A stretch of 64,000 bases of DNA from Chiloscyllium plagiosum (GCF_004010195.1 NC_057749.1:8511423-8575422), one strand, 5' to 3'. Shown: positions 2,862-62,985, counted from the stretch's first letter. The notes: generated from the sequence alone by a model not told the origin. Numbers and translations: made by a program.

Positions 2862-2992
2862 ACATCAGGTGGTTGAAGGAGCAGGGCTCCGAAAGCTAGT
2901 GCTTCCAAATAAACTTGTTGGACTATACCCTGCTGTTGTGTGATTTTTAACTTTGTACACCCCAGTCCAACAGTGGCATCTCCAAATCATGA
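2862..2992 (+). mobile_element. Short Penelope-derived element (family B tail), 5'-truncated hammerhead motif
   Basis: GAAGGAGCAGGGCTCCGAAAGCTAGTG...GTTGGACTATA...GGCATCTCCAAATCA; the same tail recurs at 29805, 42373, 43730 and 49674. Confidence 0.7.
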
Positions 2993-8289: not shown

Positions 8290-8444
8290 CAGGAGACAGT
8301 AAGGACTGCACATGCTGGAAGCCAGAGTCAATAGATGTGAAGCTGGAAAAGCACAGCAAGTCAGACAGCATCCAAGGAACAGGAAGGTCAATTTTACGGG
8401 CCAAAACTTTGACTTTCCTACTCCTCAGATGCTGTCTGACCTAC
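8290..8444. mobile_element. Fold-back Penelope-derived short element (family A)
   Basis: Inverted arms; direct repeat TGTGGATAGAT at 8279-8289 and 8445-8455. Confidence 0.7.
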
Positions 8445-9561
8445 TGTGGATAGATTAGGGCTGTTCTTGGCAAGGGAATGCCTCAAGGAGGAGATTTTCA
8501 AAATTATGAGGTGGGAGAAGATGTCTGGACAAAGTTGATTCTCAATGGTAAGAGGATCTGAGGTCAACGATTTAAGGCAATTATGGTGAACTCTGTGATG
8601 CCTTCCTATGTGAGGAACAATATGATTGCATGTTCCTCTTGACCAGCTCTTGGGGCAAATGGAAGAGTGGGCCAGCTCTGCAGTTTGGTCTAGGAGCTAA
8701 GAAAGAAAATACGCTTCTGATGGCGTTAAAAAACCGGTGTCCTCCTCCTGAATTAGTTAGTCCAGCACAACTACTGAAACCCAATGGACTGACATCTCTA
8801 CAATTTGGAAATCCCAATTTCCGAAAAACTGTTTGATTGGATTTTTATTTTGCTAAACACCTCACAGCACTGTCACTAAGTAATGAATATGATGACCATT
8901 AGAATTATTGTCATATTCTTGGTTTGACTGAAGAAAAGAGTAACAGTAATAGAGAAATCGCCTGTTTACATAGGATTGGAAATTAAAATTCAAAATGTAT
9001 CGCACTCATTGCCAGTGCCAATCTTTCTGAATAAAGAAATTTCAACTTCATTTTACGGTTAGTAAGCGATTATTCAAACCAATCCTGACTTTAGTGACAA
9101 TGCTAACTCTGGGTGACTGATCCCTTGGCATCCCTTTTAGCACAGTGTACTACTTTGGGAATATTGAAGATGCAGCATGTGGAATGAATAAAACAATTTC
9201 ATTTGTGCATTGTAATGGTTAATCAACATTTAATGTTGTGGAGACATTTATTGCTGGCTCTCACACATACTTTACATTTGAACATTATTCTGAAATTCAT
9301 AAAATTACAAATTTATTTCCAGAAATATATTTTTTGCTTTTATTCATTCTTGTTATGTCATGTCAGCATCGCTGGCAAAGTCTATATCCATTGCCCAGCC
9401 CTACGTACGCTTGACCCGAGTGCCTTACATTTCAGAGGGTAGTAATCAGAGTGCTAGGGTCTGGGTCATATGTAGGCCAGATCAGCAGATTTCCATCCTT
9501 AAAGGGCATTAATGAATCAGATGTGTTTTTATGACAATATAACAGCTTCATGGTCACCAAT

Positions 9562-16513: not shown

Positions 16514-16642
16514 TTCCTGAAGAAGGGCTTATGCCTGAAACGTCAATTCTCCTGTTCCTTTGATGCTGCCTGGCCTGCTGCGCTTTTCCAGCAACACATT
16601 TTTAAGCTCTGATCTCCAGCATCTGCAATCCTCACTTTCTCC
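16514..16642 (+). mobile_element. Short Penelope-derived element (family A) with hammerhead motif
   Basis: 14-bp TSD TAGTGTACTAGACA at 16500-16513 and 16643-16656; CTGAAGA A GGGC TTAT GCCT GAAA CGTC at 16517-16544. Confidence 0.85.
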
Positions 16643-18414
16643 TAGTGTACTAGACACCATTACAGGATTCACCCATGGCATTCCAAAGTCACAGGAAGTC
16701 TGTGGTAATCTTTAAAACTATTTTTAAAACATTCCTTTATATCATTTAACCACTATCTCAAAAATGAGAGATAAGTAGAATTAAGCAAATATTAATGGAG
16801 ATTACCAGAAAACTCAGCATGAGACTTAACTTGCAATTAAGTGTGTTTGGAATACAAGAACACATTTTGTATTTGATTTACATCACAGTTTCAAAATTAA
16901 TTTGAATGAGTTTGAACTGAGGGAGACTTTAGCAATTTTTGGCCATGTTGAGCATCTCAAAGCACAGAAGAGATTTTCTAGGATAGCAACAGAGAAAGGG
17001 ATTTCAAGTATAATGGAGTTGCAGTAAGTCCAGAAAAAGTTAAGGGTTTAGATAAAAGTGTTCAAAATCTGTGCTGTTTGGTATAAACAAGGAGAAAATT
17101 GTTCTCAGCAAACAGAAAGGTTTGCAACTGGAGCAGACAGATGTCAGGTAATGGACTCAAGAATCAGATAACCGAAGGAATTCTTTTTAATGTAGCGAGT
17201 TGAAGTTTGGAATGAATTGCCAAAAGGGTGATGGAAGCTGGTGCAATAGCAATATTCTAGAGAGCTGGATAAATACTTGGAAGTGGAAAACTTTGCTAGG
17301 CTATGGAGGGATGCATGGTATTCCTGAAGAAAGGAATATGTCAGAAACGTTAATTCTCCTGCTCCTCAGATGCTGCCTGACCTGCTGTGCTTTTCCAGCA
17401 CTGCACTCTCAACCCAGGAATGTATGGCAGCAAGACTCTGAATAGTTCTTCAAAGAGATATGGTGGGCCAAATAGCATATTCGACATCATGACCACCTTA
17501 TTTTCTCTCCCTCTCAAAAACCAAGCTTTAAAAAGTTTCCTTTTGGATGGCAAACTCAATAGTTAAAGAAGATAGATATTTTCATAAGGTAGTGCTAAGT
17601 AGCCCAAGAATTGAAAAATAGATTAAGGCAGGTTGACTGATTATTTTCTCAATGTTCAAAGACAATGTTCATTTTGCCCTATAAGTCGGCAATGTCAGAA
17701 TGGTTTCACCCACAATACCTTATCTCCTATTCAGCTGGTCAATGTGCTTGAGAGAGACAATTATTTAAGCAGTATTTAATTTTTTATTGAAAAATAATTT
17801 AAGGAATTACCAATGCATGCGGTTCAAATTCTAAGTTGTATAGCCAATGCAATAAATTGGAGAAAGCATTAATCGGATTTAATAGAAAATGCAACTTTAA
17901 AAGTGGCTGAGTGACCATATCATGGGTTACAAGCTGATCACTTTAATTCCCTCACTTAACAATTCCAGTCAAAGTCAAGAGCAAGCAGTGCTGTCAAGTA
18001 ATATCAAATTTCATGAAGCTTGGTAAGGATTCAAAGCAAATCACCAGTTGCAACTAAGGCTTTGGGAAAGGAAGCAGCAGTTATTTAGGTCACCACAGTC
18101 TCAATCTAAACCTTGGGCACAAATACATGCAAAATTGGAATTTAGCCACACATGAACGGCTAGAAAAAAAATCCAGTTTTCTGTAGAATCAAGTCCAATA
18201 TTTACTGAACGAATGGCCTTTCAGCAACAATGTCTAATTTCAGTAAAGCCACACCTGACATGAACATCACTGTAATCAGCATCTGTATTGGCATGAACAC
18301 TGTAAACTTCAAAAGGCTGGTACTTGAGACTGGAATTACCTGGTACTGCCGGTAGTCCAAAGGTGAACTTGGAACAATTACATTTAACACATCTGCTTAA
18401 TAACTGGTGAGCAC

Positions 18415-20161: not shown

Positions 20162-20380
20162 TTAGGCGAAAGTGGGTACTGCAGATGCTGAAGATTAGAG
20201 TAGTGCTGGAAAAGCACAGCAGGTCAGGCAGCATCCAAGGAGCAGGAAAATCGACATTTCAGGCAAAAGCCCTTCATCAGGAATCATTCCTGGGGAAGGG
20301 CTTTTGCCCGAAATGTCGATTTTCCTGCTCCTCGGATGCTGTCTGACCTGCTGTGCTCTTCCAGCACTGCTCTAATCTTG
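20162..20380. mobile_element. Fold-back Penelope-derived element (two family A tails head-to-head) in COX5A intron 4
   Basis: Arms of about 95 bp centred on AGGAAT-C-ATTCCT (20279-20291); 15-bp TSD ACAGTGAAATTTCAA at 20147-20161 and 20381-20395. Confidence 0.85.
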
Positions 20381-20738
20381 ACAGTGAAATTTCAAACTCG
20401 TTGACAGAGCCAGTCCAACTGAACCATAACTGGGCAAGTACAGCATCCGAAATGCCAATGTTAACAGAACTGAGAAAGAGCTGTTCAACAGCATCGGAAA
20501 AAACTTAGAATTAAAAAAACTTGAATAAGCCTTTTGCTTCAAAATGAATGAAGTGACAATTCCACACCTAATGCGCATTGACATTTATATTTCACTTTCT
20601 CTAAATCTTACACAAGACAACCAGAGTCTGTTTGCATGGTTGCTACAAATACGTGTACTTTACAAATCATATCATAATTTGTGAACTAACTCTAAAATTG
20701 GTCTTAAAGATTCTGTTGTAAACTCACCAGGTAGAACG

Positions 20739-27602: not shown

Positions 27603-27847
27603 CTGTCAATTGACAGACAGTTATTGGAACAGGCTATACAAAACAGTAGATTTTCAAAGCAATGTCAAACTTCAAGCATAGAATCTGTGCAAATATTTTT
27701 AACCATGAGAAACAGCACAGTAGCAACTAAGGGAAAGGAAACACCATAGTGCAGAAGGCCATTCAGCTCAGAATGAATATCATAATTTCATATCATTCGC
27801 CAACCTTTTCTCCATAACGCTGCACTTATTGCCTTGTTTGAATCTGC

Positions 27848-27940
27848 CGAGAGTGTGGTGCTGGAAAAGCACAGCAGGTCAGGCAGTATCCAAGGAACAG
27901 CAGAATTGATGTTTCGGGCAAAAGCGCTTCATCAGGAAGG
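27848..27940 (-). mobile_element. Short Penelope-derived element (family A), degenerate hammerhead, in COX5A intron 2
   Basis: Minus strand CTGATGA A GCGC TTTT GCCC GAAA CATC. Confidence 0.7.
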
Positions 27941-28044
27941 GGGCTTGATTGAAACTGTCCCCACACCAGTGCATTCCAGATTCTAACTACTCACTAAATT
28001 AAGAAGTTTCTTCTTTTTATTAAATTTACTACTTTTGCACTAGT

Positions 28045-28988: not shown

Positions 28989-29804
28989 CTGTCAAAGAGA
29001 CACAACATCAGTGCCTTAACAGTTTATATCGGCCCAACTACCTTCCAGCTTTCAAAAAAAAAACCCAATTCTATACAGTTAACAGTTCCTTCCAGTGCTC
29101 CATTTCACGAAGTCTGAAATTTTGAGATTTATATTAAATATTAGTTACAAGCTTTCCAAAACAAACTTTTCAAAATGATCAAGCAATAATATTATGGAGA
29201 TGGAAGGATGCAAATGAATGATTAAAACCCAACCAGTCACCTGAACTATGACAAGGTCAGACAACCCTAGGTTATAATTCAATAGTTTATTTGAAATTCC
29301 CTTTGTGGGCAGTGCTCCAAAAACTTGTGATGTCAAACAAACCTGTTGGGCTATAATCTGGTACCGTCTGACTTCTGACCTTGTCCATTCCAGTCCAACA
29401 CCGGCACCTCCACGTAATAAATTATGACAAAGCATTCCCATAGTAATTTTAACATTTAATTAACCTGTTAAGTGTATCATCGCCTCCTTTCCCACTTTCT
29501 GCCGTAGAAGTACATAACATCAGCTGGTGCTCCGACTCCTCCCCTAACCCAAGTGATGAACTTGATGCACTAGTAAGCATTTCTCTTCTTTTTTTAAGTG
29601 AAGATTTAAAGTTCAAGGTTCAATGGATCAATGCTAATTCAGCACCATGGTGCAGGAGAAACAAACTTTCTAGAAAGCTCAGGAACATCAGCTTTAGAAA
29701 CTGATTCCCAATTCCTGACTCCCCTCTACAACTTCTAACAGTTCGATTTTAAAAAATGAAGGGCAAAACTGTAATATTTTCATATAAAGACAAGGTAAAT
29801 AATG

Positions 29805-30001
29805 ATTTGGAGATGCCAGTGTTGGACTAGGGTGTACAAAGTTAAAAGCCTCAACACCAGGCTATAGTCCAACAGGTTTATTTGGAAGCACTGGCTTTCG
29901 GAGCTCTGCTCCTTCATTAGGTGGTTAAAGGTGCAGCGCTCCGAAAGCTAGTGCTTCCAAATAAATCTGTTGGACTACAACCTGGTGTTGAGAAATTTTT
30001 A
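29805..30001. mobile_element. Fold-back Penelope-derived element (family B) in COX5A intron 1
   Basis: Inverted arms around 29925; 15-bp direct repeat ACAAGGTAAATAATG at 29790-29804 and 30002-30016. Confidence 0.8.
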
Positions 30002-33000
30002 ACAAGGTAAATAATGTAGCCATGTTGGGTCAAATCTCATTCAGGTGGTGATCAGAAGTAGTTCAATCAAAGAATTCAGGACAGTAAAAACAAAATACCA
30101 ATATATGGTTTCACAGTTGGAAACCTTGGCTAACTTATCTAATTCTGTTTTCACTTGAAAAGTAACTTGACTGCCAGAACACGCCCCACAAAAAAATGCA
30201 CTGAAAGTCCACACTACAGACCCCCAGGCACTGCTTTGCACGTACCATGGCTACAAACCTCCGTTTTCTGCACTCTCCCATCTACACAGAACCAGTGACC
30301 CCACCTGGGGTCCAATCCCAACTTTGGAAATCCATGACCTACAGTAAATGTTGAAGTGCATTTAAGTGTTACCTCTGCATGACTTGGCATCCAGATCATA
30401 ACATTAGTAAGAGCAGAATATGAAGAAACAAACTGCATATTCACAGTACCTTAAACCTCACATAGTCTGTCACAGGAATATGATACAAAATTTGACACCC
30501 AATCACAAATATTTGAACAGTGCTAACAGGTTGGTTTTACGGAAACTCATTGGAGGACAAAAGGGCCACTGTTAAACTGATTAAACTAGAATGTGCAAGT
30601 ACTCAGGATTAGATGGAGATCTCTCTCTGGAGGGCCACTAAACTGGAAGAAACCATGGACACTTATAAACATTTTAGAATGTATATTAAAGGCATGGAAT
30701 TAGACAACCTTGATAGGGAAGGTTAGAGGGTTGGCAACTCAGCTGAAGGACAAATAAGATGCTAAGGGTCACACAAGATACTGGGAGGATTCAATTTTAC
30801 ATTAAATGGAAGGGGGAAAAAAAATCAAAGTGCACTAATATTTGCCAGCCATCAGATGGTATTATTTATAAGGACATGAATCTCTCTCCTAACAGTCAAA
30901 CAAGTACAAAATTAACGAGGGCTCTTGTGGCACAGTGTTAGCACTCCTACCTTTGGACCAGGAACCTTGGGTTCAAGTCCCACTTGCTCCAAAGGTATGT
31001 TGTAGCATCCCTGAACAGGTCGACTCAAATTTTCACAGACAGATACAGGGAAGGAATAGAGGGATACAGACCATGTGCAGCCAGAATGGATAAGATTAGA
31101 ATGACATCAGGGTCAGTGCTGACATGATGGATTGAAGGGCATTTTTGTGCTGCACTATTGTCTGTTCTAATAGTATTCCACTATAAACGTGTACTAGACA
31201 CAAGAAATTGTGAAACACCGACAAGCAACAGTAAGCCAAGAACAATTCTCATTTGAATGGAAAAAACAATGTGGTCAGAAATAAATGTGGCGGGGGAGAC
31301 AGGGTGAGAGAGAAGGGAGATTGCTGCTCAATCCGGAGACAGCTAAACCGAAAACAGGAAGCTACTTCTGTAGTTAATTCGCTGTACCCTAAACGCTACT
31401 ACTACAACAATGCTGTGCAAAGGAACAAAGCAACCTTCACCTGATTAAAAAACCAGTAATGTTAAGCAGGACTGAAAGCAAAACAAACTGACAAATGTAC
31501 ATTTTGAAAACAACAGGAACTGAAGAGTTGTCAAGAACCATGTGGACACGTGAAACAAAGGACTTTCCAAACACTGCCTTCACATTCAATAATGAACACT
31601 GTTTGGCAATGTACCTATTGGACTCATTTTATTGTGAACAGCATGGATTTAGTTTCATCTTGACTGCTACGTTGCAGGAAACGGAGTGGCACTAAACTTA
31701 GTGTTGGTTTACTTTCACCACAGGCTGTCCATTTGGTGATTAATCATTGACAGAGCCAAGCCTACAAGCAGTTTCCCAGAACTCAACAGCAACACAGTTC
31801 CAATAAAACGCAACTGGTCACAAAAGTATGAAAAGATTTTACCCATTCACATCCAGTTGCTTCAAAACTTGAATGCTCTCTGGCCAATTCAAAAACACCA
31901 TGCAAGAATGCTCTTCAAATAATTTTGTAGCAAGTTGAGATACCGATGGATCATCATACGCAGGAAACTAAAATTGCAAAATGTTGCCCAACCTGTATAC
32001 ATTATCCATTTTTCTTTGGTCACCAGGAACAGACAAATGGAACATTTTCCTTTCCAGTTCCAATCTCTGCGCATCACTTCAACCTTTTAACAATGCATTT
32101 AATAAGCAACCTTTGACAGGTTCCAGGGTTCCCAGGTTAGAATCTGAGTGTTACAGGCCTAGAAATAGCTACCAACATTTATTTGAACTAAATCGAATGC
32201 CAGACACAGACAGCACTTTGTTAACTTTCAATTCATGGAGCCGCAATTCTATTTGCATGCAGTATTACAATTTGACAACAGACTCAACAACTGCAGCTCT
32301 ACAATTAACTTCTCACACTTATGGGCTCTTAGTGACAGCAAGTCAGCTGCAGCTGGCACGTTGATCAATATGTCTAAACCATCTTAAAGCACCATACATT
32401 TCTGAGAACTTTAGATCTAATGACAGGCTTTTAAGCAACTGGTGTACTTCAAGCTTAGGCCATCAGGAACTGGATTAACTTTTCAAAATAATCTCAATGT
32501 TTACAACCTCAAATTTTACAGCCATTAATTCGAGTAAATTCAAATCCATACCCTAAAGATGAAAGCAGACAGATCAACACACATTCAAAAAACATTTACA
32601 TACATACAAAATGCGATAACTCAATGCTCCACATACATGGCACTCAAACAGCCTGAGACAATTAGCCATAGTTGATTCAACCATTTTCTTCAGGAAAATA
32701 CATATGATTCAGCCATTCAGCTCTACCTCCACGCCCATCCTTTGACTGAACCATGATTGTGAAATCAACTCTACTTTCCTGTCTATAACCTTCATCCAAT
32801 ACAGCCAGAGAAATATTCAACATTACAGCCTCCATTGCTCTCAGAGTAAAGAATTCCACAGATAAAAGACTCTCAGAAGAAATTACTCAACTGTCCTAAA
32901 TGGAAGAATTATTTTTAAACTGTGACCCCTCTTTCTAGCTTCTGCCATAAGAGGAAGAATCCTCTCAGATTTACCTTATCAAGTCACCTTGGGATTAACT

Positions 33001-33404: not shown

Positions 33405-34157
33405 TTTTGAGAAGATTTGTAGCTCAGGTTGAGGTTCTGGATGTAACTTGGCTCACTGAGCTGGAAGGTTTGTTTTCAGACTGCGCAGGACATTGGTTAG
33501 GCCACTGTTGGAATATTGTGTGCAATTTTGGTTGTCTTCCTATCGAAAATATGGTGTGAAACTTGAAAGGGTTCAGAAAAGATTTACATGAATGTTGTCA
33601 GGGTTGGAGGATTTGAGCTATAGGGAGTGGCTGAGGGCTGTTTTCCCTGGAGAGTCAGAGGCTGAGAGGTGACCTTATAGAGGTTTACAAAACTATGAGG
33701 GGCATGGATAGGGTAAATAGACAAAGTCTTTTCCCTGGGGTCAGGGAGTCCAGAACTAGAGGGCATAGGTTTAGGGTGAGAGGGGAAAGATATAAAAGAG
33801 ACCTAAGGGTCTCTTTTTCATGCAGAGGGTGGTATGTGTATGGGATGAGCTGCCAGAGGAAGTGGAGGAGGCTGGTACAATTGCAACATTTAAGAGGCCT
33901 TTGGATGAGTATATGAATAGGAAGGGTTTGGAGGGATATGGGCCAGGTGCTGGCAGGTGAGACTAGATTGGGTTGGGATATCTGGTCTGTTTCCATGCTG
34001 TACATCTTTATGACTATGATATTTCGTCATCATACTAGGTAACATCAGTGAGTCTCCAGTGAAGCTTCACTAGAGGCTCACTGATGACATTACCTAGTAT
34101 GGTGACGAAACGTCCGAAACAAACCTTCCAGTTCAGCGAGTCCACTTACATCCAGAC
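33405..34157. mobile_element. Fold-back Penelope terminal repeat (family C) interrupted by a CR1 fragment
   Basis: Left arm 33405-33481 plus 34021-34058, centre GTGAAGCTTCAC, right arm to about 34157; matches the 3' end of the Penelope at 48826-49380. Confidence 0.8.
33482..34020 (+). mobile_element. CR1 3' fragment
   Basis: MRGMDRVNRQSLFPG..ESRTRGHRFRVRGERYKRDLR; (ATGACT)-type tail. Confidence 0.85.
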
Positions 34158-36097: not shown

Positions 36098-36470
36098 ATT
36101 AGACAACAGGTGCAGGAGTAGGCCATTCTGCCCTTCGAGCCAGCACCACCATTCATTATGACCATGGCTGATCATCCTCAATCAGTATCCTGTTCCTGCC
36201 TGATCCGCATAACCCTTGATTCCACTTCCCTTAAGAGCTCTATCCAACTCTTTCTTGAAAGTATCCAGAGACTTGGCCTCCACTGCCTTCTGGGGCAGAG
36301 CATTCCACACACCCACCACTCTCTGGGTGAAGAAGTTTCTCCCCAGCTCTGTTCTAAGTGGCCTACCCCTTATTTTTAAACTGTGTCCTCTGGTTCGGGA
36401 CTCACCCATCAGCAGAAACATGCTTCCTGCCTCCAAAGTGTCCAAACCTTTAATAATCTTATACATCTCA
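36098..36470 (-). mobile_element. CR1 3' fragment abutting the promoter
   Basis: YKIIKGLD...ESRTRGHSLKIRGRPLRTELGRNFFTQRVV. Confidence 0.85.
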
Positions 36471-36609
36471 CACAACACCAGGTTATACTCTAACAGGTTT
36501 ATTTGGAAGCACTAGCTTTTGGAGCGCTGCTGTGGAGTACACAATTGTAAGACACAGAATTTACAGCAAAGGTTTACAGTGTGATACATTGAAAAGTACC
36601 TTAAGTCCA

Positions 36610-38120
36610 AGTGATACAATCACACAGCACAGAAACGGACCCTTCATTTAAAATATCTTTTAAATGTTGTAACTGTGCCTGCATCCACCACTTCCTCAGA
36701 AAGTACATTCTGCACACAACCACCCCCCCCCCATGCAAAAAAGTTTGCCCCTCATGCCTTATAGAGACAAAAACAACTGCAGATGCTGGATTCCAAGGTA
36801 GTCAGGCAGGAGGCTGGAAGAACACAGTAAGCCAGGCAGCATCAGGGGAGGTGGAGAAGGGTTATACCCGAAACATCAACCTCTCCATCTCCTGATGCTG
36901 CCTGGCTTGCTGTGGTCTTCCACCTCTTGCTTGTCTACCTCATGTCTTATAGTCATAGACTCATACAGCACAGATGCTTTGATCCAATCATTCCATGCCG
37001 AACATAATCCCAAAGTAAAGCAGTCCTGCCTGTCTGCTCATGCCCCATATCCCTCTAAACATGACCTATTCATGGACTTAGAGTCATAGAGATGTACAGC
37101 ATGGAAACAGACCCTTCGGTCCAACCCGTCCATGCCGACCAGATATCCCAACCCAGTCTAGTCCCACCTGCCAGCACCCAGCCCATATCCCTCCAAACCC
37201 TTCCTTTTTATATACCCATCCAAATGCCTCTTAAATGTTGCAATTGTACCAGCCTCTACCACTTCCTCTGGCAACTGATTCCATATACGTACCACCCTTT
37301 GTGTGAAAAAGTTGCCCCTTAGGTCTCTTTTATATCTTTCCCCTCTCACCCTAAACCTATGCCCTCTAGTTCTGGACCGCCCCGACCCCAGGGAAAAGAC
37401 TTTCTCTATTTATCCTGTCCGTGCAATCATGATTTTGTAAACCTCTATAAGGTCACCCCTCAACTTTCGACGCTCCAGGGGAAACAGCCCCAGCCTGTTC
37501 AGCGTCTCCCTATAATTCAAATGTCTTTTAAATTTTGTAACTTGCTCAGAAAGTTCAGTCTATACGTGGACCACCCTCATTAGCCCCTCATGTCTTATAG
37601 TCACAGAATCATACAGCACAGAAACAGATGATTTGGTCCAACCAGTCCATGCCGAACATAATCTCAAACTAAACCAGTCCCACCTGCCCGCTGCTGGCCC
37701 ATGTCCCTTCAAACCTTCCTATTTGTGCACTTTAGAAAGTTGAGGGGAGCTTTAGAAGGTTGAGGAGAGATCTAATAGAAACTTACAAGATAATGCATGG
37801 CTTAGATAGGGTAGACGCTGGGAATTTGTTTCCATCAGACGGGGGTACTAGACCTTTGAGCACAGCCTTAAATCAGAGGGGGTCAATTTAAAACGGAAAT
37901 GAGGTGACAATTCTGTGGAATTCATTGCCATGGAGTGCAGTAAAGGCCGGATGTTAAATGTCTTCAAGCCAACTATTGATAAATTCTTAATCTCGCAAGG
38001 AATTAAGGGATACGGGGAGAGTGAGGGTAAGTGGTGTTGAAATATCCATCAGCCATGATTGATTGGCAGAGTGGATTTGATGCACTTACTTTCACTCCTA
38101 TGTCTCGTGGTCTTATGGTC
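36610..38120. mobile_element. Cluster of nested CR1 3' ends and Penelope-derived tails
   Basis: Minus CR1 37082-37515 (GERYKRDLRGNFFTQRVV), several further CR1 tails, plus-strand CR1 37735-38120, Penelope-type fold-back 36765-36940. Confidence 0.7.
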
Positions 38121-38680
38121 TTACTTACCTAATTGTCTTTTAAACACTGTGATCTTTGAAAAATTGCTATGGTATCTTTCACTCTCATTTGAGAGGGCAG
38201 ACAGGGCCTCAGTTGAGTGTTACAGTCCAGTGATTCATTTAGCATTACAGGCTTTTGGAACACTGCTCCTTTGTCAGGTGAAGAATCATAGAACCTTACA
38301 GTAAAGCACTTCAGCCCATCAAGTCTATGCTAAATCTACACCAGTCCCATTTTCCAGCACTTGGCCCCATAGCCTTGAATGTTATGGCATTTCAAGGGCT
38401 CCTCCATAAAATATAGGAACAGAATTAGGTAATTTGGCTCATTCAATCAGCTCCACTGTTCCAAACACTGTCTAAGCTACGCTCAGCATATGCTGATTGC
38501 AGCACAACTCTTTTTTTTCTCTCTCCACACATGAAGAGTGAACTCACTATCAGTTAATAAAAGCAAAATGCTTCATTATGCTGGCTTGGTGGCTGGTTTA
38601 TGATGCCAAAAGCATGGGTCCAATTCCCACTCCAGTTGAGGTCACCATGAATACCTAACCTGAAGGGATTAGGTAGCTCC

Positions 38681-39290
38681 TTTAGTGATGGGAACCGAGT
38701 GGATCTCATTGACTATGAGATCCTTGTTTGGGGTTGTTAATCTGGGCCAATCAGAGAGCCCCGGCTGACAGATATACACAGGAGACTCAGATTCTTGTAG
38801 GGAGGATGCCATGGCATCAATGTGGATTTCACCAGTTTCCTCATTTCCCCTTCCCCCACCTCATCCCAGCTCCAACCTTCCAGCTCAGCACCGCCCTCAT
38901 GAATCATCCTACCTGCCTATCTTCCTTTACACCTATCCACTCCACCCTCCTCTCTGACCTATCGCCTTCATCCCCACCCCCATTCACCTATTGTACTCTA
39001 TGCTACTTTCTCTCCACCCCCACCCCCCTCTCATTTATCTCTCCATTCTGCAGGCACCCTGCCTCTATTCCTGATGAAGGGCTTTTGCCCGAAACATCGA
39101 TTTTCCTTCTCCTCGGATGCTGCCTGATCTGCTGTGCTTTTCCAGCCCCACTCTAATCTAGACACAGGAGACTCAGAGTCTACTCACTTCAGGGGTTGAG
39201 TCTGAGCTGGCTGACCACAGCCAGTGTATTGTGCACATTTAAATAAAGGTAACTTGATGATGGTATACCAGCCTCTATGCAGTTATTTCA
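38681..39290 (+). mobile_element. Solo LTR (Gypsy-like) interrupted by a Penelope fragment
   Basis: 5-bp TSD GCTCC at 38676-38680 and 39291-39295; ends ...TTATTTCA; internal CCAAT and AATAAA; homologous minus-strand copy at 57266-57473. Confidence 0.72.
38792..39161 (+). mobile_element. Penelope 3' fragment with family A hammerhead motif
   Basis: 16-bp TSD ACACAGGAGACTCAGA at 38776-38791 and 39162-39177; HGINVDF end of GIY-YIG ORF; C-rich UTR; CTGATGA A GGGC TTTT GCCC GAAA CATC at 39071-39098. Confidence 0.85.
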
Positions 39291-40426: not shown

Positions 40427-41614
40427 TCAGGAATGCAAGGGGGAGTTGAAGTGTTGAGCCACGGGGTGGTTGGGTTGGTTGGTCTGGGTGTCCGAGAGGT
40501 GTTCTCTGAAACGTTCCGCAAGTAGGCGGCCTGTCTCCCCAATATAGAAGAAGCCACATCGAGTGCAGCGGATGCAGTAAATGATGTGTGTGGAGGTGCA
40601 GGTGAATTTGTGGCGGATATGGAAGCATCCCTTGGAGCCTTGGAGGGAAGTAAGGGGGGAGATGTGGGCGCACGTTTTGCATTTCTTGCGGTTGCAGGGG
40701 AAGGTGCCGGGAGTGGAGTTTGGGTAGGTGGGGGGTGTGGACCTGACAAGGGAGTCACGGTGGGAGTGGTCTTTTCGGAACGCTGATAGGGGAGGGGAGG
40801 GAAATATATCCCTAGTGGTGGGGTCTGTTTGGAGGTGGCGGAAATGACGACTGATGATACGATGTACCTGGAGGTTGGTGGGGTGGTAGGTGAGGACCAG
40901 TGGGGTTCTGTCCTGGTGGCGATTGGAGGGGTGGGTCTCATGGGCAGAGGAGTGGGAAGTAGAGGAGATGCGGCAGAGAGCATCGTCGATCACGTCTGGG
41001 GGGAAAATTGCGGTCTTTGAAGAAGGAGGCCATCTGGGTTGTACGGTATTGGAACTGGTCCTCTGGGAGCAGATGCGGCGGAGACGAAGGAATTGGGAAT
41101 ATGAGATGGCGTTTTTACACGGGGCAGGGTGGGAGGAGGTGTAGTCTAGGTAGTTGTGGGAGTCGGTCGGTTTATAGTAAATGTCCGTATTGATTCAGTC
41201 GCCCAAAATAGAAATGGAGAGGTCTAGGAAGGGGAGGGAGGAGTCTGAGACAGTCCAGGTAAATTTAAGGTCGGGGTGGAAGGTGTTGGTAAAGTGGATG
41301 AACTATTCAACCTCCTCGTGGAAGCACGAGGCAGCGCTGATACAGTCATCGATGTAGCGGAGGAAAAGGTGGGGGGTGGTGCCAATGTAGCTGCGGAAGA
41401 TGGACTGTTCCACATATCCTACGAAGAGGCAGGCATAGCTGGGGCCCATGCGGCTGCCCATGGCTACTCCTTTGGTTTGGAGGAAGTGGGAGGATTGGAA
41501 AGAGAAGTTGTTCAGAGTGAGGACCAGTTCAGTCAGTCGAAAGAGGGTGTCAGTGGAAGGGTACTGGTTGGTACAGCGGGAAAGGAAGAAGCGGAGGGCT
41601 TTGAGTCCTTCATG
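40427..41614 (-). mobile_element. Penelope-like retroelement: RT C-terminal half plus GIY-YIG endonuclease (frameshifted)
   Basis: LTLNNFSF...QTKGVAMGSRMGPSYACLFVG...RYIDD; CxxxxCKTC linker; IYCIRCTRCGFFYIGETGRLLAERFREH...HPVAQHF. Confidence 0.93.
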
Positions 41615-41629
41615 GTGTGTCCCATGCAA

Positions 41630-42192
41630 GGACACACATCTCCTTCTGGAATGTGCCTACGCAGAAGAAGTCTGGAGAGGAATGCAGTGGTGTCTGTCGA
41701 GATTCGCCCCGAGCAGCACCGTGACGCGGGACTCCGTGCTCTATGGTCTGTTCCCCAGGGCGCACACCGAGACGATCATCAACTGCGCCTGGAGGATCAT
41801 CAACTCGGTGAAGGACGCTCTCTGGGTGGTCCGAAGCCTGTTGATCTTCCAGCTGAAGGAGTTGACCCCGAATGAGTGTTGCGGACTGGCACATTCCAAG
41901 GTCCAGGACTACGTGTTGAGGGACGCGCTGAAGCTTGGGACAGCTGCCGCCAAGGCGCGGTGGGGAAAGACCACCATGTAACGTCTGCCTGCCTAAGAAG
42001 AATAGGGGGCCCACTCAGTCTTTTGGGCTCTGCTGATGCCTCAGCTAAATATATGGATGGTAAACGTACAGACGTGTATATACAAATGATAAATTCTGAT
42101 CTCTGTATGCAAATGTTTACGTATGTATGGCATGACCAACTGTACAGACCATCAAATTATTTTATGAATAAAGTATATTTTTGGAAAAAAAA
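41630..42192 (+). mobile_element. Tx1/L1-clade LINE 3' end
   Basis: THLLLECAYAEEVW...VLYGLF...VKDALWVVRSLL...AKARW; stop at 41981; AATAAA at 42167-42172; A-tail 42185-42192; high CpG content suggests a young copy. Confidence 0.85.
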
Positions 42193-43339
42193 GTGTTGGC
42201 TGTAATGCGATTACATCACCAACACTTTAAGCGCTGTTTCTAAACCACAGTTTTTCTTTCACACAGGGTTGCCCAAGAGCGTAATCATCACGTTTCTGAA
42301 AAACTGATTATATAACTTAAGGCATGACATTCTGTCAGTAGACAAAAATTGTTCATAATTGCAAGACTTTACTTGATGAAGGGGCAGTGCTATGAAAGCT
42401 TGTGATTTTAAATAAACCTGTTGGACTATAAGCTAATGTCGTGTGACTTCTGACTTTGCCCATCCCTGTCCAACACCGGCACTTCCACATGAAGAAATCT
42501 GAAATAGTAAGCAATTTTTTGGGGGAAGCTATTTCGTTCACATCCTACAGGAGGTGCAAGCGAGCCATTTTGTACAGATACAACATAAAGGACCAAACCA
42601 GTGATGTATTTGACTGCCTCTTAAGTTGTGTTTTTGCCCATTTTCTAGCTCCTTTTCCAAATCTAACATCCTCTGACCTTTCTTTTAAAAAATGTTTAGG
42701 AATATTTCTCTTGAAGATAATTTCCGAATGAACGATCTTATTTGGCAGTGAACTTTAAAAGTTGCACCTTTCTGCAGAACAAATTTTCACAAAGCCACAG
42801 AAAAATTGGAGTCTCGTGTTCAATTACTGTTCAATTATTTTAGCTTTTTTAAAATTTATTGACCTCAATGTAAGTATACTTGTTGCTCAATCGAATGGCC
42901 ACATGAAACATCAACAACTGATTCAATTTCGAGTCAATTTCTCCTCAAATACCGATATCTACCGCAATGTCTGAGTAGTCAGTGTAATAACTACCTGACT
43001 GGCAAAATCCCTCTGTAATTTTAACAAAATTCAAACTTTTCCTTTTTATTTATGAAAAGTATCAGTTTCCTTGGAAATAATTGTCAATGACATCCTTGGC
43101 TTGAGAGTCCTTCCCGCAGTCCTTGACAACAACACAGCAATAGCCTACAACAAGCGGGTAAACACCTCCATTCAAACACCGAACAGGAGTGTGGTACAAT
43201 TGCAACATGCAGTACTCTAAATTGCGGAACATTGTTCCCTGGATCTCAAATCAAGTTAAAGAAATTCAGTGGCCGCCAGGTTTATATGCAGTTTGATCTT
43301 GAAGTATGGCGACGTTTCACATCAATTCAACTGTGCAAA

Positions 43340-44590
43340 ATAAGAGCTCATTGTAGGGAATAGTGTAATATGGTGGATAGAGGGGAAACAGAAAGTCAGT
43401 ATAAATGGGTCACAATTGGAGTTGCAAGATGTGACAAGTGCAGTACTACCAGGAATTAATACTGGGTCTCAAATTTTGACAATTTAAATTCACGGCTTGG
43501 ATGACTGGGCTGAATGTGAGGTGGCAAATTTTGCTGATAACACAAATATAGACAGGTAAGTAAGTTGCAAAGAGTTCATTAGGAATCCACAAAGGGATGT
43601 AGCTAGGTTAAGGGAATGGACAAAAACTTGGCAAATTGTGGATAATGTGGGAAAATGTTAACTTGGCCACTTTGGCAGGAAGAATAGAAAAGCAGTATAT
43701 TATTTAAATGGAGAAAGCTTGCAGGAGTATGAAGTCAGAAGTCATGCGGCACCAGATTATAGTCCAACAGGTTGATTTGAAATCACAAGCTTTCAGAGCA
43801 CTGCCCCTTCATCAGATGATCTGAAGAGAAGACATACAAGCCCAGAATTTATTATCAGAGAGATCAAAAGATCATAGAAATGGTATCTTTTGTTAATTTC
43901 ATTTGATAATGGAGCAGCACTCCAAAAGCTTGTGACTTCAAATAAACTTGTTGGACTATAACCTGGTGTCGTGTGACTTCTGACTTTGTCCACCTCAGTC
44001 CAGTACTGGCACCTCCAAATCATTGCAGAATTATGAAGTACAGAGGGATCTGAGTGTTCTGGTACATGAATCACATGAACTTAGTTTGAAGTTGCAGCAA
44101 ATGATTAGGAAGGCGATTGAAAAGGTATTGTTTACTGCAAGGGGAATAGAACATTACAGTTGAGATATTTTGTGGCAGTTGTACAGACATTGGTGAGACC
44201 ACATCTGAAATACAGTGTATAGTTTTGTCTCCTCATTTAAGAAGCAATGTAATTAATTGAGGACAATTCAAAAAGGTTCACTCGACTCATTCCTGGGATG
44301 AGGAGGCTATCTTATGAGGAAAAGTTGGAGAGGCTTGCCTGTGTCCATCAGTGTTTAGAAGAAGCAGTGATAATCTTGCTGGGCCTTGAGAGGCCTTGAC
44401 AGATTGGATGCTAAAAGGAAGATCCCCCTTTGTGAGGGAGACTAGGATTAGAGGAGACACTTTAAAAATGCAGCATTCCATTTAAGATGTAGATGACAAG
44501 ACTGTTTTTTTCTCAGGGTGTCCTGAATCTTTGGAACTGTTTTCACTAGAGAGGCTGACAAAGATTTTCATGCTAGAGGTAAAGATCTGG
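43340..44590 (+). mobile_element. Old CR1 RT fragment with a nested family B Penelope fold-back (about 43736-44022)
   Basis: VANFADNTNI-like and LVRPHLKY frames; imperfect TSD TGCAG.A.TATGAAGT around the insert. Confidence 0.7.
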
Positions 44591-45385: not shown

Positions 45386-46279
45386 ATTTTTAAAAGATTC
45401 TTAACAAAGAAGGGAGTCAATGGCTATTAAAGTAAGGCAGGAAAGTAGAGCTCAAATCACATTCAGAACGGCCATGATCATAATGAATGGTGTAGCAGGC
45501 TTGAGGGGATGAATGGCCTGCACCTACTTGTCGAGCAAGTGAGGACTGCAGATGCTGGAGAGTCAGAGTCGAAAAGTGTGGCACTGGAAAAGCACAGCAG
45601 CTCAAGCAGCAGCCGAGGAGCAGGAGCATTTACATTTTAGGTATAAGCCCTTCAGTTTGTACATGAGCATTCATATATATTACCTTTGCCTAGTGCTTGA
45701 ACAATTATAGCCTGTTTCTCTTATGAAGTCATAGTTAAAATTATAAGTTGACTTTTTTTAGAAGTGGCATTAAATTCCCACTTTACAGTGCTACTCTCTT
45801 GTTAAAGGATTGAATAAGTCCAACTACTTCTGTACACGAAAGAGTTTTATGTTATTAGAAGACAGCTGTAAACTGATGCCATTAATGACCAGCAGAGAAT
45901 TGTATTTTAATGAATGGCTGGAGGATGCTTTTATTTTTGACCCCAGATACAATAACCATGTTGTTAATCATTGCACGTCTAAAAGGCATACTTATCCAGA
46001 CTTTCATCACTGAGATGTTGCCTGGCCTGGAGAGTGTTAGTTATGAAGAGAGATTGGGTAGACTGGAATTGTTTTCCTACGGGCAGGGCAGACTGAGGGG
46101 GATCGTGATTGAGATGTGTAAAGTTATGAGGGGCATACATAGAGGAGAAAGCAGAAACTTTTCTCCTTGATGGAAGGCTCAATGACCAGTGGGTGTAGAT
46201 TTAAGGTGAGGGCAGAAATTTCAAGGGGAGTGTGAGAATCTTTATTTCACCCAAAGTGTGTGGGAATTTGGAACATGCT

Positions 46280-46798: not shown

Positions 46799-47358
46799 AA
46801 AAATAATGGTGGTAGAGGCAGAAACACTCATAACATTCAAAAAACATTTAGATGAACACATATGATGCCAAGGCATACAAGACAATGAGCCAACTGCTGG
46901 AAAATGAGATTAGAATGGTACACAGAACAGAACAGCACAACACAGGCCCTTCAGCCCATGATGTTGTGCTGAGCATTTAGCTTAATCTAAGATCAATCTA
47001 ACCTACACATCCCCCAATTTACTGCTGTCCATGTACTTGCCCAGCAGTCGCTTAAATGTCCCTAATGTCTCGACTCTGGCAGTGCATTCCACACACCCAC
47101 CACTGTCTGCGTAAAGAACCTACCTCTGACATCTCCCTGATACCACCCTCACCCTAACCTTCTGAAGTCCAGCTAGGGATGGGCAATAAATGCTGGCCCA
47201 GCTAGCAACATCCCAGAAATGAACTTTAAAAATTACCATATTTGCATTTAGTAAAAGTTCCATTTCAGATTTCCTGATTTCAGACAAAACTAGGTCTTCA
47301 GTTGACTATTTGCATTCTTCGGAGTATCAGGAGGCAGGGCATTTGCTCGTTTATTTCA

Positions 47359-47925
47359 CTGGGAGGACTGCAGATACTGGGGATTAGAGTCAAAAAGTGT
47401 GGTGCTGGAAGAGCACTAAACAACTCAACCACACTGTGGCCGAACACTTCAATTCACCCTCCCACTCCTCCAAGGACATTCAAGTTCTGGGCTTATTCCA
47501 CTGCCAAATCCAACCACCCGACCCTGGAGGAAGAGCACCTCACCTTCTGCCTTGGGACCCTCCAACCACACGGGATCAATGTCAATTTCACCAGCTTCCT
47601 CATCTCCCCTTCCCCCCACCTCATCCCAGAGCCAACCTTCCATCTCGGCACTGTCCTGTTGAACTGTCCTACATGTCCATCTTCCTTCCCGCCTATTTGC
47701 TCCATCCTGTGCTCCGACCTATCACCTTCACCCCCCACCTTCATCTACCCATCGCATTCCCAGCTACCTTCCTCCCAGTCCCACCCCCATCCCATTTATC
47801 TCTCATCTCCCTTGGACACCACCCCTCCACATTCCTGATGAAGGGCTTATGCTCAAAACTTTGACTCTCCTGCTCTTCGGATGCTGTCTGACCGGCTGTG
47901 CTTTTCCAGCATCGCACTTTTTAAC
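47359..47925 (+). mobile_element. Penelope 3' fragment with short inverted 5' tail
   Basis: NHTVAEHFNSPSH...LEEEHL.FCLGTLQPHGINVNF; degenerate hammerhead at 47831-47865; 15-bp TSD TGCT(C/T)GTTTATTTCA at 47344-47358 and 47926-47940. Confidence 0.85.
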
Positions 47926-48825: not shown

Positions 48826-49455
48826 AGTTTTGAGAAGATTTGTAGCTCAGGTTGAGGTTCTGGATGTAGGTTTGCTCACTGAGCTGGAAGGTTTGTTTTT
48901 AAACGTTTCATCACCATATGTGGTAACATCTTCAGTGAGCCTCCGGATGAAGCACTGGAGGCGTGGCCCACTTTCTGTGTATGTGTTTGGGTTTCCTTGG
49001 GTTGATGATGTCATTTTCTGTGGTGACGTCATTTCCTATGGTAACGTCATTTACCGTTCTTTTTCTCAGGGGGTGGTAAATGGAATCCAAGTCAATGTGT
49101 TTGGTGATAGAGTTCCAGTTGGAATGCCATGCTTCTCGGAATTCTTGGTGCGTGTCTCTGTTTGGCTTGTCCTCGGATGGATGTGTTGTCCCAGTCGAAC
49201 TGGTGCCCTTCATCATCTGTATGTAAGGATACTAGTGAGAGAGGGTCATGACTTTTTATGGCTAGTTGATGTTCATGTATCCTGGTGGCTAATTTTCTGC
49301 CTGTTTGTCCAATGTAGTGTTTGTTACAGTTCCTACAAGGTATTTTGTAAACAACATTAGTTTTGCTTGTTGTCTGTATTGGTTCTTTCATCATGGTAGC
49401 CCACAAACACACCAACACACTAAAACAGCAGCTAATGAACTTGAAAGACCATGTT
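48826..49455 (-). mobile_element. Penelope-like element (second lineage): GIY-YIG endonuclease and 3' terminal repeat with family C hammerhead
   Basis: NVVYKIPC.NC.KHYIGQTGRKLATRIHEH...HQFDWDNT; minus strand TCA CTGAAGA T GTTACC ACATAT GGTGAT GAAA CGTT at 48938-48902. Confidence 0.9.
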
Positions 49456-49760
49456 GGTTTCAGGTTTTTCATATGTAAATTGCAAAACTTTTGTAAAAGT
49501 TACATTCTCAATTGAACTTTAACAATTGGTGTCATGTCGGCCCAGATAATGCATTGAAGGTCGTTCTAAAAGATAACAGACTTAACAAGCAATCCAGGTC
49601 TTTTTCAATTTATAATTCCAGTTACATCACACTGTATAAAAATTCTGTGTCTTATGAACTTATACTCCACAACCACCTGATGAAGGAGCAGCGCTCTGAA
49701 AGCTAGTGCTTCCAAATAAACCTATTGGACTATAGCCTGGTGTTGTGTGATTTTTAACAT
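49455..49760 (+). mobile_element. Penelope terminal repeat (family B) with a near-intact hammerhead motif
   Basis: CAC CTGATGA A GGAGC AGC GCTCT GAAA GCTA GTG at 49674-49708. Confidence 0.78.
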
Positions 49761-50954
49761 CATTATTTATGGGATGTAGGCATTACTGGCAGGGCTAACA
49801 TTTATTACCCTGCCCAAATTGCCCTTGGGCCTTTCTGGATGGTCACTTAAGAGGGCATTTAAGAGTCAACCATAGTGCTGTGAGTCTGAAGTAGATGTCA
49901 GCTTTGATTTCCATTTCCTCGGGTGAATTATGTTCTCTGTAGCTATCAGGAATCCAAGGCAATTACCATCACTGATATCTGCATTTTTCAACTAGAAATG
50001 GGACATCAGCTGGGTGTCCCATTAACTATGGGTTACCCTGCAGGAAATGGACCATGGACCGAATAAAACAGAATCGGTACTAGATCCATTGCTAGAGAAG
50101 CTCCTACCAGCCTCAGGTTTATACCTTAAGGTAAGGTGAGGCAAGAAAATGTAGGTTTTATTGGCATGTGTACAATGAAAAGTGTACAATGTCGCCATTC
50201 CCGGTGCCATCTTGGGTACAAAGGTAGCTAGCTACAAAATCTTAGTTACAGAAGTAGAAAAATAAAGGTATAGGTTTAAAAACTTCTGCACTGCAGTCGT
50301 CTTAGTATCAAAGTTAAAACGTCAAACATTACAATCCTTTCTTAAGCCATGGGCCTGCAGGTGTGCCAAGCTGGGCTTTCCCTAAGAGACCTCACTCTGC
50401 TCTGTGCTGGGCTGAGACCCTCCTGTGTTCACCAGCTGCCTTCGCCTCTGATCTCCATCGGGCCATCTCCATCACTGCCACTCGCAAGGCTTTGGCCCTG
50501 ACCACTGCTGACTGCTGCTGCTGCCAGCCTTTCCAACAAACCGTCACTGCCACCCTCTTTTGCCACTGACCGCTGCCCACCTCATTGCTGACTGCTGCAA
50601 ATCGATGCGCTCAAGATTTTTGATGGCCTTCTTGCAATTTTGCAAAGAACTAACAAAGGGATAGGGTCACATTTGTTTTCAGTGACAGGTTAGTAACTAG
50701 AACACACTGCCTGAGAGTATATAGGTAGGTGCCTGAGGTGAAGCATTTGTAGGGCTAATTAGAGACTCACTGATTTGCTCCTGCTGAGGACTGACCTGGG
50801 CAGACAGACAAATGGCCTCCTTCTGTAATTCTTTGATCCTTATCTTGACCCCCTTACTCCCCCCGCAGGCCTTTCAACCACCCATAACCCATCTGGAGAT
50901 TGGGCTCTGAGAAACGTTCAATGGTGAGGGATCAGTCATATCAACAGAAGAAGA

Positions 50955-54785: not shown

Positions 54786-54990
54786 AACCTTAACCTTCTA
54801 AATTCTAGAGAAAATGTATACAATGTCTCCTCATAACTTAACCCTTGGTGTTCAAGTGTTATTCTTGTGCTCCATTAAGGGTTTAAATGCAAAATAATGA
54901 GATTACAGCAAACCTGAAGTAACATGTAGGAAATGCTCAGGAGGTCAGGCAGCAACTGTGGAGAGAAAGTAGGTTTCAGGTCTGTGACTG

Positions 54991-55074
54991 AGCTGAAAAT
55001 GTGTTGCTGGAAAAGCACAGCAGGTCAGGCAGCATCCAAGGAGCAGGAGAATCGACGTTTCGGGCATGAGCCTC
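54991..55074 (-). mobile_element. Short family A Penelope-derived element nested in an older related tail
   Basis: 16-bp direct repeat TTCAGGTCTGTGACTG at 54975-54990 and 55075-55090. Confidence 0.75.
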
Positions 55075-55440
55075 TTCAGGTCTGTGACTGTTCATCAAAA
55101 CTGGGAGAAGCTGGCCATCTAATTGTGTTTGGACAAGTTTGAACAAGATTTCATTCTAGTTGGGAATTGAATGAAAAGGGAGTTCTGAGATCAGGTAAGG
55201 TGGGTGGGACCAGGGGAGATTAAATGACAAAAGGGTTTGTGGTGAAAGGCCAAAGAGAGTTGGACTGGGACATGTAAACAAAACAAAACGGTGTCTGGAG
55301 GTGGTGTGAATGAGCAGGATCTGAGAAACTGCCATCCAAAAGGCACTCTGGGTTAAGGCAATTTTCCTGAATATCCAAGTGGATGTATGAGGGGCTATCT
55401 CATGCTAATGCCCCCTCGTTTTGAATGTGTAAACATCTTT

Positions 55441-62449: not shown

Positions 62450-62985
62450 AGTGGAACAAACGGAATATAAAAAACGCTGGAGACCACTGCAGGTCAGGCA
62501 GCATCCATGGAGAGACAGCAAGCTAATGTTTCGAATCCAGATGTCTCTTCATCAGAGCTGATATGAAGTGTGGAGGGGGCAACATTGTGTGGGGTGGTGG
62601 GTGTTGGAGGGCTGAGGGGAGAAAAGATGTTGATATTCAGATTAAGTGATTGGAATGCAAAAATGGCAGAACAATGGTGTGTCAGACTGGAAAGAACAGA
62701 CAGTCCCATTGGGGTCGGTAGGGTGGGGAGGTGGGGGAACATGGTGACAGAGAATGTAAAGCAAAAAGAAGGGGAAGGAATGGTTTCACAATCTGAAGGT
62801 GTTGAGTTCAATATTGAGTCCAGGAGTTTGTAAAGTGCCGAGTTTGAAGATGAGATGTTGCTCCTCCAGTTTGTGCTGTGATTCCATGGAACACTATGGC
62901 ATGAGGACAGACATGTGGCATACAAGCAGGATGCTGTGTTAAAATGACCGGATACGGGAAGGTCAGGGTCATGCTTGCACATGGA
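62450..62985 (-). mobile_element. Old Penelope 3' fragment with family D hammerhead motif
   Basis: DPDLPVSGHFN and LEEQHLIFKLGTL...GLNIEFN frames; minus strand AGCT CTGATGA A GAGAC ATCTG GATTC GAAA CATT AGCT at 62559-62521. Confidence 0.78.

Follow-up and report, generated by a model that had tools for sequence, protein, structure and literature searches.

The hammerhead motif at 49674–49708

Does the short stretch at positions 49674..49708 on the plus strand of this DNA hold a hammerhead ribozyme, and from what kind of element would it derive? An earlier note had read it as a minimal, dimer-type hammerhead of one family (family B) and as the best copy of a multi-family system in the window, that is, in the whole 64-kb stretch of DNA analysed here. 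Our analysis indicates that the motif is probably a relic of a minimal type I hammerhead from the terminal repeat (pLTR) of a Penelope-like element (PLE), and that at least four lineages of this kind seeded the window.

The motif reads CAC-CUGAUGA-A-GGAGC(AGC)GCUCU-GAAA-GCUA^GUG. Its parts are stem I (CAC/GUG), the core CUGAUGA, one extra base A, helix II (GGAGC/GCUCU), the GAAA box, a palindrome AGCU and A17. With hammerhead numbering, C3 is located at 49677 and position 17 at 49705, and cleavage is predicted after 49705. We rechecked letters and numbering, and the parse and the predicted cut site given in the earlier note are correct. In the 5-bp stem II described there, however, the closing pair is a G.U wobble (GCUCU). 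Since two other family B copies, at 29920(-) and 2874(+), have GCUCC instead of GCUCU, the 49677 copy seems to have acquired this wobble by a C-to-T change. The copy is isolated, with no same-family partner nearby on its strand, and has G.U at 10.1:11.1; in all likelihood it is a relic without activity.

The repeat fragment of family B that surrounds the motif spans 49640..49763 (+), and past ...TTTTTAAC it no longer resembles the other B copies. On the upstream side of the core, it has about 35-60 nt in common with the copies 36531(-) and 43815(-). Directly after the repeat, at 49770-49830 (+), a repeat-like stretch GGGATGTAGGCATTACTGGCAGGGCTAACATTTATTACCCTGCCCAAATTGCCCTTGG with the inverted repeat GGCAGGG...CCCTGCC is found.

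A second near-intact copy, proposed for the minus strand at 43783-43819, is present. From 43819 down to 43783 it reads TCAT CTGATGA A GGGGC AGT GCTCT GAAA GC T T GTGA, with C3 at 43815 and position 17 at 43787. It forms the minus arm of a family B head-to-head inverted pair (43729..43986, both strands) and has a 7-bp stem I, while the plus arm is decayed (core at ~43903). The pair interrupts a CR1-like reverse-transcriptase frame. To be noted, the decayed core at 43903-43909 (+) reads UUGAUAA, with U3 and A8 for C3 and G8, and is followed by CAAA for GAAA. The U3/A8 double change is a published natural core covariation of Schistosoma PLE hammerheads; at 43903 it may be coincidental decay.

Copies and families in the window

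Copies were found by self-BLAST and by nhmmer with family seeds over the 64-kb window, and the families were labelled A to D. nhmmer gives 31 full or partial copies in four families (15 A, 11 B, 4 C and 1 D), so that the "more than a dozen" of the earlier note was an understatement. Both core boxes are exact in 12 copies. The description of four families with unrelated stems holds in that core and pairing are kept in all four; it does not extend to the flanks, as A and D have GGATGCTGCCTGACCTGCTG downstream in common. The family A consensus is ttc CTGAWGA A GGGC TTWT GCCC GAAA CG TC GATTCTCC..., family B occurs in the sub-types GGAGC/GCTCC and GGGGC/GCTCY, and the family C consensus is CTGAWGA N GTTACC ... 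GGTGAY GAAA CG TY. Family D is a single copy with a downstream module as in family A; it lies at 62482..62565 (-), with the motif from 62555 down to 62525 and a stem I of AGCU/AGCU.

We also applied a strict descriptor, which requires the core boxes, 0-1 extra base and a perfect helix II of at least 4 bp abutting both boxes. It further demands Watson-Crick pairing at 15.2:16.2, U16.1 and any base but G at position 17. Five sites are found in the 64-kb window, namely 16517+, 49677+, 48935-, 43815- and 4362-, and the motif at 49674..49708 is among them. A metagenome scan with the family B pattern gave 0 matches. The same kind of scan with a 20-nt family A module gave 17 loci, mostly G+C-rich and several on contigs of hundreds of kilobases; all are chance matches, and none has a hammerhead upstream.

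The other family B copies are in various states of decay. A second head-to-head inverted pair at 29800..30004 (both strands) carries a 15-bp target-site duplication ACAAGGTAAATAATG; its minus arm reaches the full 3' end, and its plus arm has no CUGAUGA box and stops at TTTTTAAC. The copy at 42367..42495 (+) has the core UUGAUGA and lies head to head with the 5' side of a minus-strand PLE remnant, the copy at 2858..2995 (+) has lost its 5' core box at an inverted junction, and the copy at 36451..36557 (-) has a 15-nt deletion taking out ACCACCTGATGAAGG. More strongly altered are the decayed copy at 38220..38291 (-), with CUGACAA ... CAAA, and a decayed inverted pair at 29257..29415 (both strands). 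Three B copies share the internal end ...TTTTTAAC (at 49763, 30004 and 36451), about 87 nt after C3, and others extend to ...CATCTCCAAATCAT, which suggests two discrete 3' ends or sub-families in family B.

Architecture and covariation

The core could be located in 22 copies. For the pair counts, 14 copies with family-typical spacing were kept and 8 with indels or truncations were dropped; the 14 all come from this one window, and the core anchors guided their alignment, made by hand. MAFFT, applied to 17 copies of all families, misplaced helix II of B, C and D, and its alignment was left unused for these counts. A covariance model built from 6 family B copies finds the B copies and reaches A copies only at E 5-8, and is too family-specific for aligning the remaining families.

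An extra unpaired base after A9 is observed in 14/14 copies and in all four families (12 A, 1 C, 1 U). Of the copies kept, 14/14 have GAAA and 13/14 have U16.1; there is some circularity in the counts for core and GAAA, since recognisable anchors were the ground for keeping a copy, and the helices are free of this bias. Position 17 is C in 7 copies, U in 5, A in 2 and G in 0, and core position 7 alone varies freely (U 9, A 4, G 1). Helix II is 4-6 bp long in the families of the window, and its cells are paired in 50/56 cases. At 10.1:11.1 the 14 copies have G-C in 6, G.U in 6 and no pair in 2, and the G.U cases have T where sister copies have C. For stem I, B2 has 7 bp, B1 has 3 bp plus 2, D has 4 bp and C has 3 bp; the stem is weak in C and also in family A, where 2 bp are followed by U.U. 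Helix III is replaced by a palindromic A-N-N'-U, which is ACGU in A and C and AGCU in B. Its inner pair, 15.2:16.2, is formed in 11/14 copies, two of them with U.G wobbles; the two wobble and the three unpaired copies show TG or CA in place of the CG of their sister copies. CpG-type decay of this kind (CG to TG/CA) is found in most copies, where it affects the ACGU palindrome and the 3' base of helix II, and it is the pattern that dead copies in a methylated vertebrate genome would show.

As a control for covariation, 5' strands were combined with 3' strands from a different family. Within copies, 38/42 cases are paired at helix II positions 10.2-10.4, versus 136/378 across families; stem I is paired in 39/56 versus 159/504, and 15.2:16.2 in 11/14 versus 33/126. 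The identity of the pairs changes from family to family. At 10.2:11.2, A and B have G-C where C has U-A and D has A-U, and at 10.4:11.4 the pair is C-G for A, G-C for B and A-U for C. For 15.2:16.2, A and C share C-G while B has G-C. At 2.2:1.2, A has U-A, B has A-U, and both C and D have C-G. The differences between families in helix II, stem I and the palindrome are compensatory changes around a constant core. Covariation, which the earlier note had named as a check for genome-wide copies, is seen between families in the 14 window copies in all three places.

Four features led Cervera and de la Pena (2014, PMC4209133) to hold the minimal hammerheads of PLEs non-random: families rich in covariation, an additional base between 9 and 10.1, the pair G10.1-C11.1, and a palindrome at 15.2-16.2. 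As worded in that source, all four are present in the families of the window. The Rfam hammerhead models give no match in the window at gathering score or at E up to 10, nor on 49640-49740 (101 nt), a silence expected for a motif without helix III and without loop contacts. Membership in the canonical Rfam hammerhead families (Hammerhead_1 and relatives) was considered separately and is ruled out, the gathering threshold not being reached.

Link to Penelope-like elements

A PLE reading-frame remnant is located at 40430..42156 (-) and comprises an RVT_1-like stretch, a CX4CXXC linker and GIY-YIG. Pfam GIY-YIG matches at 40430-41194(-) with 23.4 bits (cut-off 22.6), and RVT_1 at 41306-41656(-) with 20.6 bits, below its cut-off of 29.6 (E 3.8e-4). 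A reverse-transcriptase (RT) frame followed by GIY-YIG on the same strand is described as the hallmark of PLEs in PMC8557442, where a CX4CXXC-type linker, found here ahead of GIY-YIG, is ascribed to the Neptune and Nematis clades. The nearest Atlas clusters to this frame are HTH_animal + GIY-YIG clusters, mostly eukaryotic and with the named phyla mostly animal. The remnant is cut off after ...VAQHFNSPLHS, and its own 3' hammerhead is missing.

Two families are tied to such frames. A PLE 3' end at 48860..49499 (-) carries a family C hammerhead, from 48935 down to 48902 and then a tail. It lies ~160 nt 3' of a GIY-YIG remnant on the same strand (49499 down to 49095; Pfam 18.2 bits at 49095-49499(-), below cut-off). 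An inverted pair of family C at 34019..34156 (both strands) has its plus-arm hammerhead at 34081-34114 with A.C at 10.1:11.1. For family A, a PLE 3' end at 47278..47920 (+) shows in order the remnant of the endonuclease C-terminal end (AEHFNSPSHS..., ...LGTLQPHGINVNF), ~250 nt of untranslated sequence, a decayed family A hammerhead with its core at 47835, and a tail. A second long family A copy is found at 38771..39146 (+), with its hammerhead at 39071-39098. These two long copies align unbroken (38811-39146 and 47569-47910, 76.6% over 342 nt) across the 5' boundary of the short form; their common stretch starts 260 nt upstream of the hammerhead and runs through it, and the upstream part of the 47278..47920 copy encodes the PLE endonuclease C-terminal end. 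In families A and C, the motif is located 3' of a PLE frame remnant, in sense.

Families B, to which the 49674 motif belongs, and D have no link to a PLE reading frame within the 64-kb window. The earlier interpretation as a PLE minimal hammerhead therefore stands for the architecture, which is as published, and for the position of A and C 3' of PLE frames; for family B, the tie to a frame is absent from the window.

Proposed mechanism

On our reading of the 49674 motif as a pLTR relic, most copies would be short 5'-truncated or pLTR-only insertions of ~90-130 bp, single or in head-to-head pairs from one event. The RNA of a source element would carry a single motif without helix III, so two copies would pair through the palindrome A15.1-N-N'-U16.1, the partners lying on one longer-than-unit transcript or on two RNAs. 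Together with an exchange of stem I strands, this pairing would give a double hammerhead, in which each core would cut after position 17 (after 49705 in the 49674 copy). The cut would trim PLE or pLTR transcripts. We infer dimer formation, cleavage and role after the published PLE model. With nearest-neighbour energies, the double-hammerhead fold is predicted at -6.1 to -16.1 kcal/mol versus -22.2 to -31.8 for the minimum-free-energy folds of the dimers, so in this model it is not favoured, being neither demanded nor excluded. Cleavage in vivo by the motifs of the source elements seems to us evenly balanced between yes and no.

The same conserved shape could have been kept for another task. 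The hammerhead would then be genuine and PLE-derived, but its selected role would be that of a 5' fold of the pLTR RNA recognised by RT-EN, or it would be a passenger, and the core conservation would reflect protein or template recognition. Consistent with this, the motif lies at the very 5' end of the short family A units, 4 nt from the boundary. PLE hammerheads are reported to cleave poorly in vitro (PMC4209133), and the Anolis PLE hammerhead is described as cleaving only with the protein of the element, with no read ends at the cut site and with insertion in vitro independent of cleavage (PMC11167929). PLEs devoid of hammerheads (HHRs) proliferate well, and the authors of PMC8557442 write that "HHRs simply parasitize PLEs". 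However, the catalytic-core positions and the non-G17 are kept across four lineages with different stems, as would be expected of a catalytic hammerhead. Furthermore, fungal PLE hammerheads are stated to cleave normally (PMC4209133), and cleavage of the Anolis one is lost in C3/G8 mutants and restored in the double mutant (PMC11167929). Taken together, we consider a role other than self-cleavage unlikely.

Insertion anatomy

The short family A copies start with ATTC, 4 nt before C3, and are ~100-130 bp long. A unit of ~129 bp at 16514..16642 (+) starts ATTC-CUGAAGA, has its hammerhead at 16517-16544 and is flanked by a 14-bp target-site duplication TAGTGTACTAGACA. Another at 4237..4366 (-) has an intact hammerhead from 4362 down to 4335 and a 9-bp duplication; its insertion site is at the 3' end of the ORF2 of a CR1-like LINE, and the ORF2 frame continues past the duplication. 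Core boxes are also intact at 27846..27941 (-), where helix II is broken at one pair and the palindrome is decayed to ACAU, and at 17319..17409 (+), where helix II is decayed. The copy at 54990..55083 (-) is truncated at both ends and has a 16-bp duplication or microhomology TTCAGGTCTGTGACTG, and that at 45533..45664 (-) is decayed. Over several copies, the target-site duplications span 9-16 bp.

Seven head-to-head inverted pairs are found in the window. In family A these include the pair at 20164..20383 (both strands), with a 15-bp duplication ACAGTGAAATTTCAA and an intact minus-arm core from 20280 down to 20253. The pair at 8291..8448 (both strands) lacks the 5' core box in both arms and has an 11-bp duplication TGTGGATAGAT. 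A divergent pair lies at 36811..36925 (both strands), and its hairpin scores as mir-2007-like in Rfam. A single 15-bp duplication brackets each of the pairs 20164-20383 and 29800-30004, so each represents one insertion event. In these two pairs and in 8291-8448, the hammerhead ends meet in the middle; of the two arms, one extends to the usual far end of the family, and the other falls short of it on its outer side. Both this arrangement and the orientation of the reading frames agree with an RNA template of hammerhead sense. Published PLE structures comprise an inverted truncated copy by the 5' end, pLTRs and a "tail" (PMC8557442), and PMC4209133 mentions "dual min-HHRs ... in opposite strands". 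The duplications and inverted pairs of the window match the PLE insertion structures given in PMC8557442.

Short family A copies share a fixed end on the side of the hammerhead and vary at the far end, contrary to what simple 5' truncation would give. The constant 5' end could reflect a transcription start just before the hammerhead, giving pLTR-only RNAs, or a circular template opened at the RT start site. We also considered that it is a product of hammerhead cleavage, and this is out, as a cleavage product would begin at position 1.1, whereas the copies begin upstream of the core. Head-to-tail tandems of one family do not occur in the window; the nearest same-strand pair, 16517+ and 17324+, is 807 nt apart, and its 16517+ member carries its own duplication.

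A more speculative proposal, which we regard as possible but doubtful, is that pLTR-only mini-elements of ~100-130 nt amplified independently in the manner of SINEs, by riding on the PLE machinery. They would consist of a minimal hammerhead at the extreme 5' end, a short tail and little else. Their template would be short transcripts starting at the hammerhead, or hammerhead-processed small circular RNAs opened at the RT start site, and their inverted pairs would arise by snap-back or twin priming.

The constant hammerhead-side end of family A, with its variable far end, would also suit the 3' end of an antisense RNA. The repeats could then be the 3' tails of 5'-truncated LINEs (CR1-like) read antisense, with helix II as an RT-recognition stem-loop and the likeness to a hammerhead incidental; CR1-like fragments do lie near or around several copies. 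Against it, PLE frame remnants are found upstream on the same strand in the two long A copies and in one C copy, and the A copy within CR1 (4237-4366) is a separate insertion with its own duplication. The pairs 20164-20383, 29800-30004 and 8291-8448 have the geometry of an RNA in the hammerhead sense, and the four lineages covary in all three helices around an unchanged core. We therefore consider an origin from LINE tails very improbable and keep to the PLE terminal repeat.

CR1-like LINE ORF2 fragments are numerous in the window (RVT_1 matches, C-terminal ...LEYRVQFWSPHYRKDVEVLERVQRR...), for example at 4309-6197 (-). Further ones lie at 52044-52697, 56554-57140, 33469-34016, 15740-16272, 60213-60699, 37082-37514 and 24251-25278. 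Several hammerhead repeats follow a CR1 3' end at a distance of 0-550 nt, or lie within one, as at 4237-4366. This vicinity could be due to chance at such a density of repeats, or to a target preference.

Frequency compared with shuffled sequence

The pattern CTGATGA-N8-30-GAAA occurs 7 times in the 64-kb window versus 1.9 expected, and 0/100 shuffles reach 7. The strict descriptor finds 0 sites in 200 dinucleotide-preserving shuffles of the window. A chance resemblance inside ordinary interspersed repeats, with which the shortness of the motif and the missing score of the Rfam hammerhead models would agree, is scarcely credible against five strict matches with none in any of the 200 shuffles, against the recurrence in four families of the extra base, G10.1-C11.1, the palindrome and the non-G17, none of them demanded by the core pattern, and against the PLE reading frames that adjoin the motifs.

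Comparison with known systems

The motifs of the window resemble the metazoan PLE minimal hammerheads of PMC4209133, as these are characterised in that text, in almost every respect. Common to both are the type I layout, CUGANGA and GAAA, the unpaired base A9/10.1, G10.1-C11.1, and the palindromic A-N-N'-U without helix III; a short helix I is shared less clearly, stem I being weak in A and C. In both, several covarying families occur per genome, mostly as solitary copies and with some opposite-strand pairs, and the motif lies 3' of an RT-GIY-YIG frame, in the window for families A and C. Helix II, in contrast, has 7-8 bp in the Schistosoma families reported there and 4-6 bp in the window. Also unlike the PLE minimal hammerheads in the published accounts on which we draw, many A copies form separate units of ~130 bp with a start 4 nt ahead of the core, and the local density is very high, with 31 copies in 64 kb. 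PLE minimal hammerheads are reported from fishes, coelacanth, Xenopus and reptiles (PMC4209133).

With canonical type I hammerheads (Hammerhead_1; Schistosoma Sm-alpha, newt satellite 2) the motifs share the catalytic core and the type I topology, and for those with a short helix III dimer action has been proposed, as for the motifs of the window. Unlike them, the window motifs have no helix III hairpin, no tertiary contact between loop 1 and loop 2, and no Rfam score. A further paper on PLE minimal hammerheads has reportedly been published by Lunse, Weinberg and Breaker in RNA Biol.

Non-LTR retrozymes are another relevant group. In animals they have been put forward as non-autonomous elements derived from PLE pLTRs (preprint by Li, Clavereau and Pollet, 2026; PMC7229834), and the preprint lists them in 20/31 vertebrates sampled, including its one chondrichthyan. 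Like these retrozymes and their monomer derivatives as there described, the units of the window are short and non-coding, have a type I hammerhead at their head, are akin to pLTRs and lie scattered as monomers. Retrozymes, however, are characterised in these sources by head-to-tail tandem arrays and circular RNAs, whereas no tandem array of any family is present in the window, and the window units, unlike retrozymes so described, carry target-site duplications or form inverted pairs.

A literature text search with three 12-20-nt strings of families A and B returned no relevant paper, and families A to D may be undescribed in print. The repeats have the look of those in elasmobranch genomes. 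The kind is already published in other animals, and the window adds new sequence families of PLE minimal hammerheads. What is somewhat unusual is the density (31 copies and 5 strict motifs in 64 kb), together with family A units that begin with the hammerhead. Several families at high local density thereby join the catalogue of PLE-linked ribozymes, and existing knowledge of hammerheads or of PLEs is unchanged by them. The window also provides clean natural cases of single-event inverted pairs and of pLTR-only insertions with target-site duplications, both of which bear on the mechanism of PLE insertion. If the window were typical with its 31 copies and 5 strict motifs per 64 kb, an extrapolation would give on the order of 10^5 intact-looking minimal hammerheads genome-wide, which would greatly exceed the ~4,000 reported for coelacanth and the ~9,000 for Xenopus (PMC4209133). 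If the mini-element proposal were true, part of the "unclassified" repeats would be ribozyme-headed PLE parasites.

The head-to-head pairs form long near-perfect hairpins, which Rfam scores as microRNA precursors below threshold (bits versus gathering score): MIR6024 at 20236-20334 (51.9 versus 72), mir-2007 at 36811-36925 (40.4 versus 100) and mir-1597 at 29883-29959 (36 versus 93). Such hairpins could be mis-annotated as microRNA genes, or they could be real sources of small RNA. For annotation, the short repeats and hairpins are to be labelled PLE pLTR / hammerhead relics, and not unknown repeats or microRNA candidates. In addition, the HDV-like ribozyme model drz-agam-2-2 of Rfam gives a sub-threshold match at 61323-61439 (+), with 18.7 bits versus a gathering score of 38 and E 1.4, which is probably due to chance.
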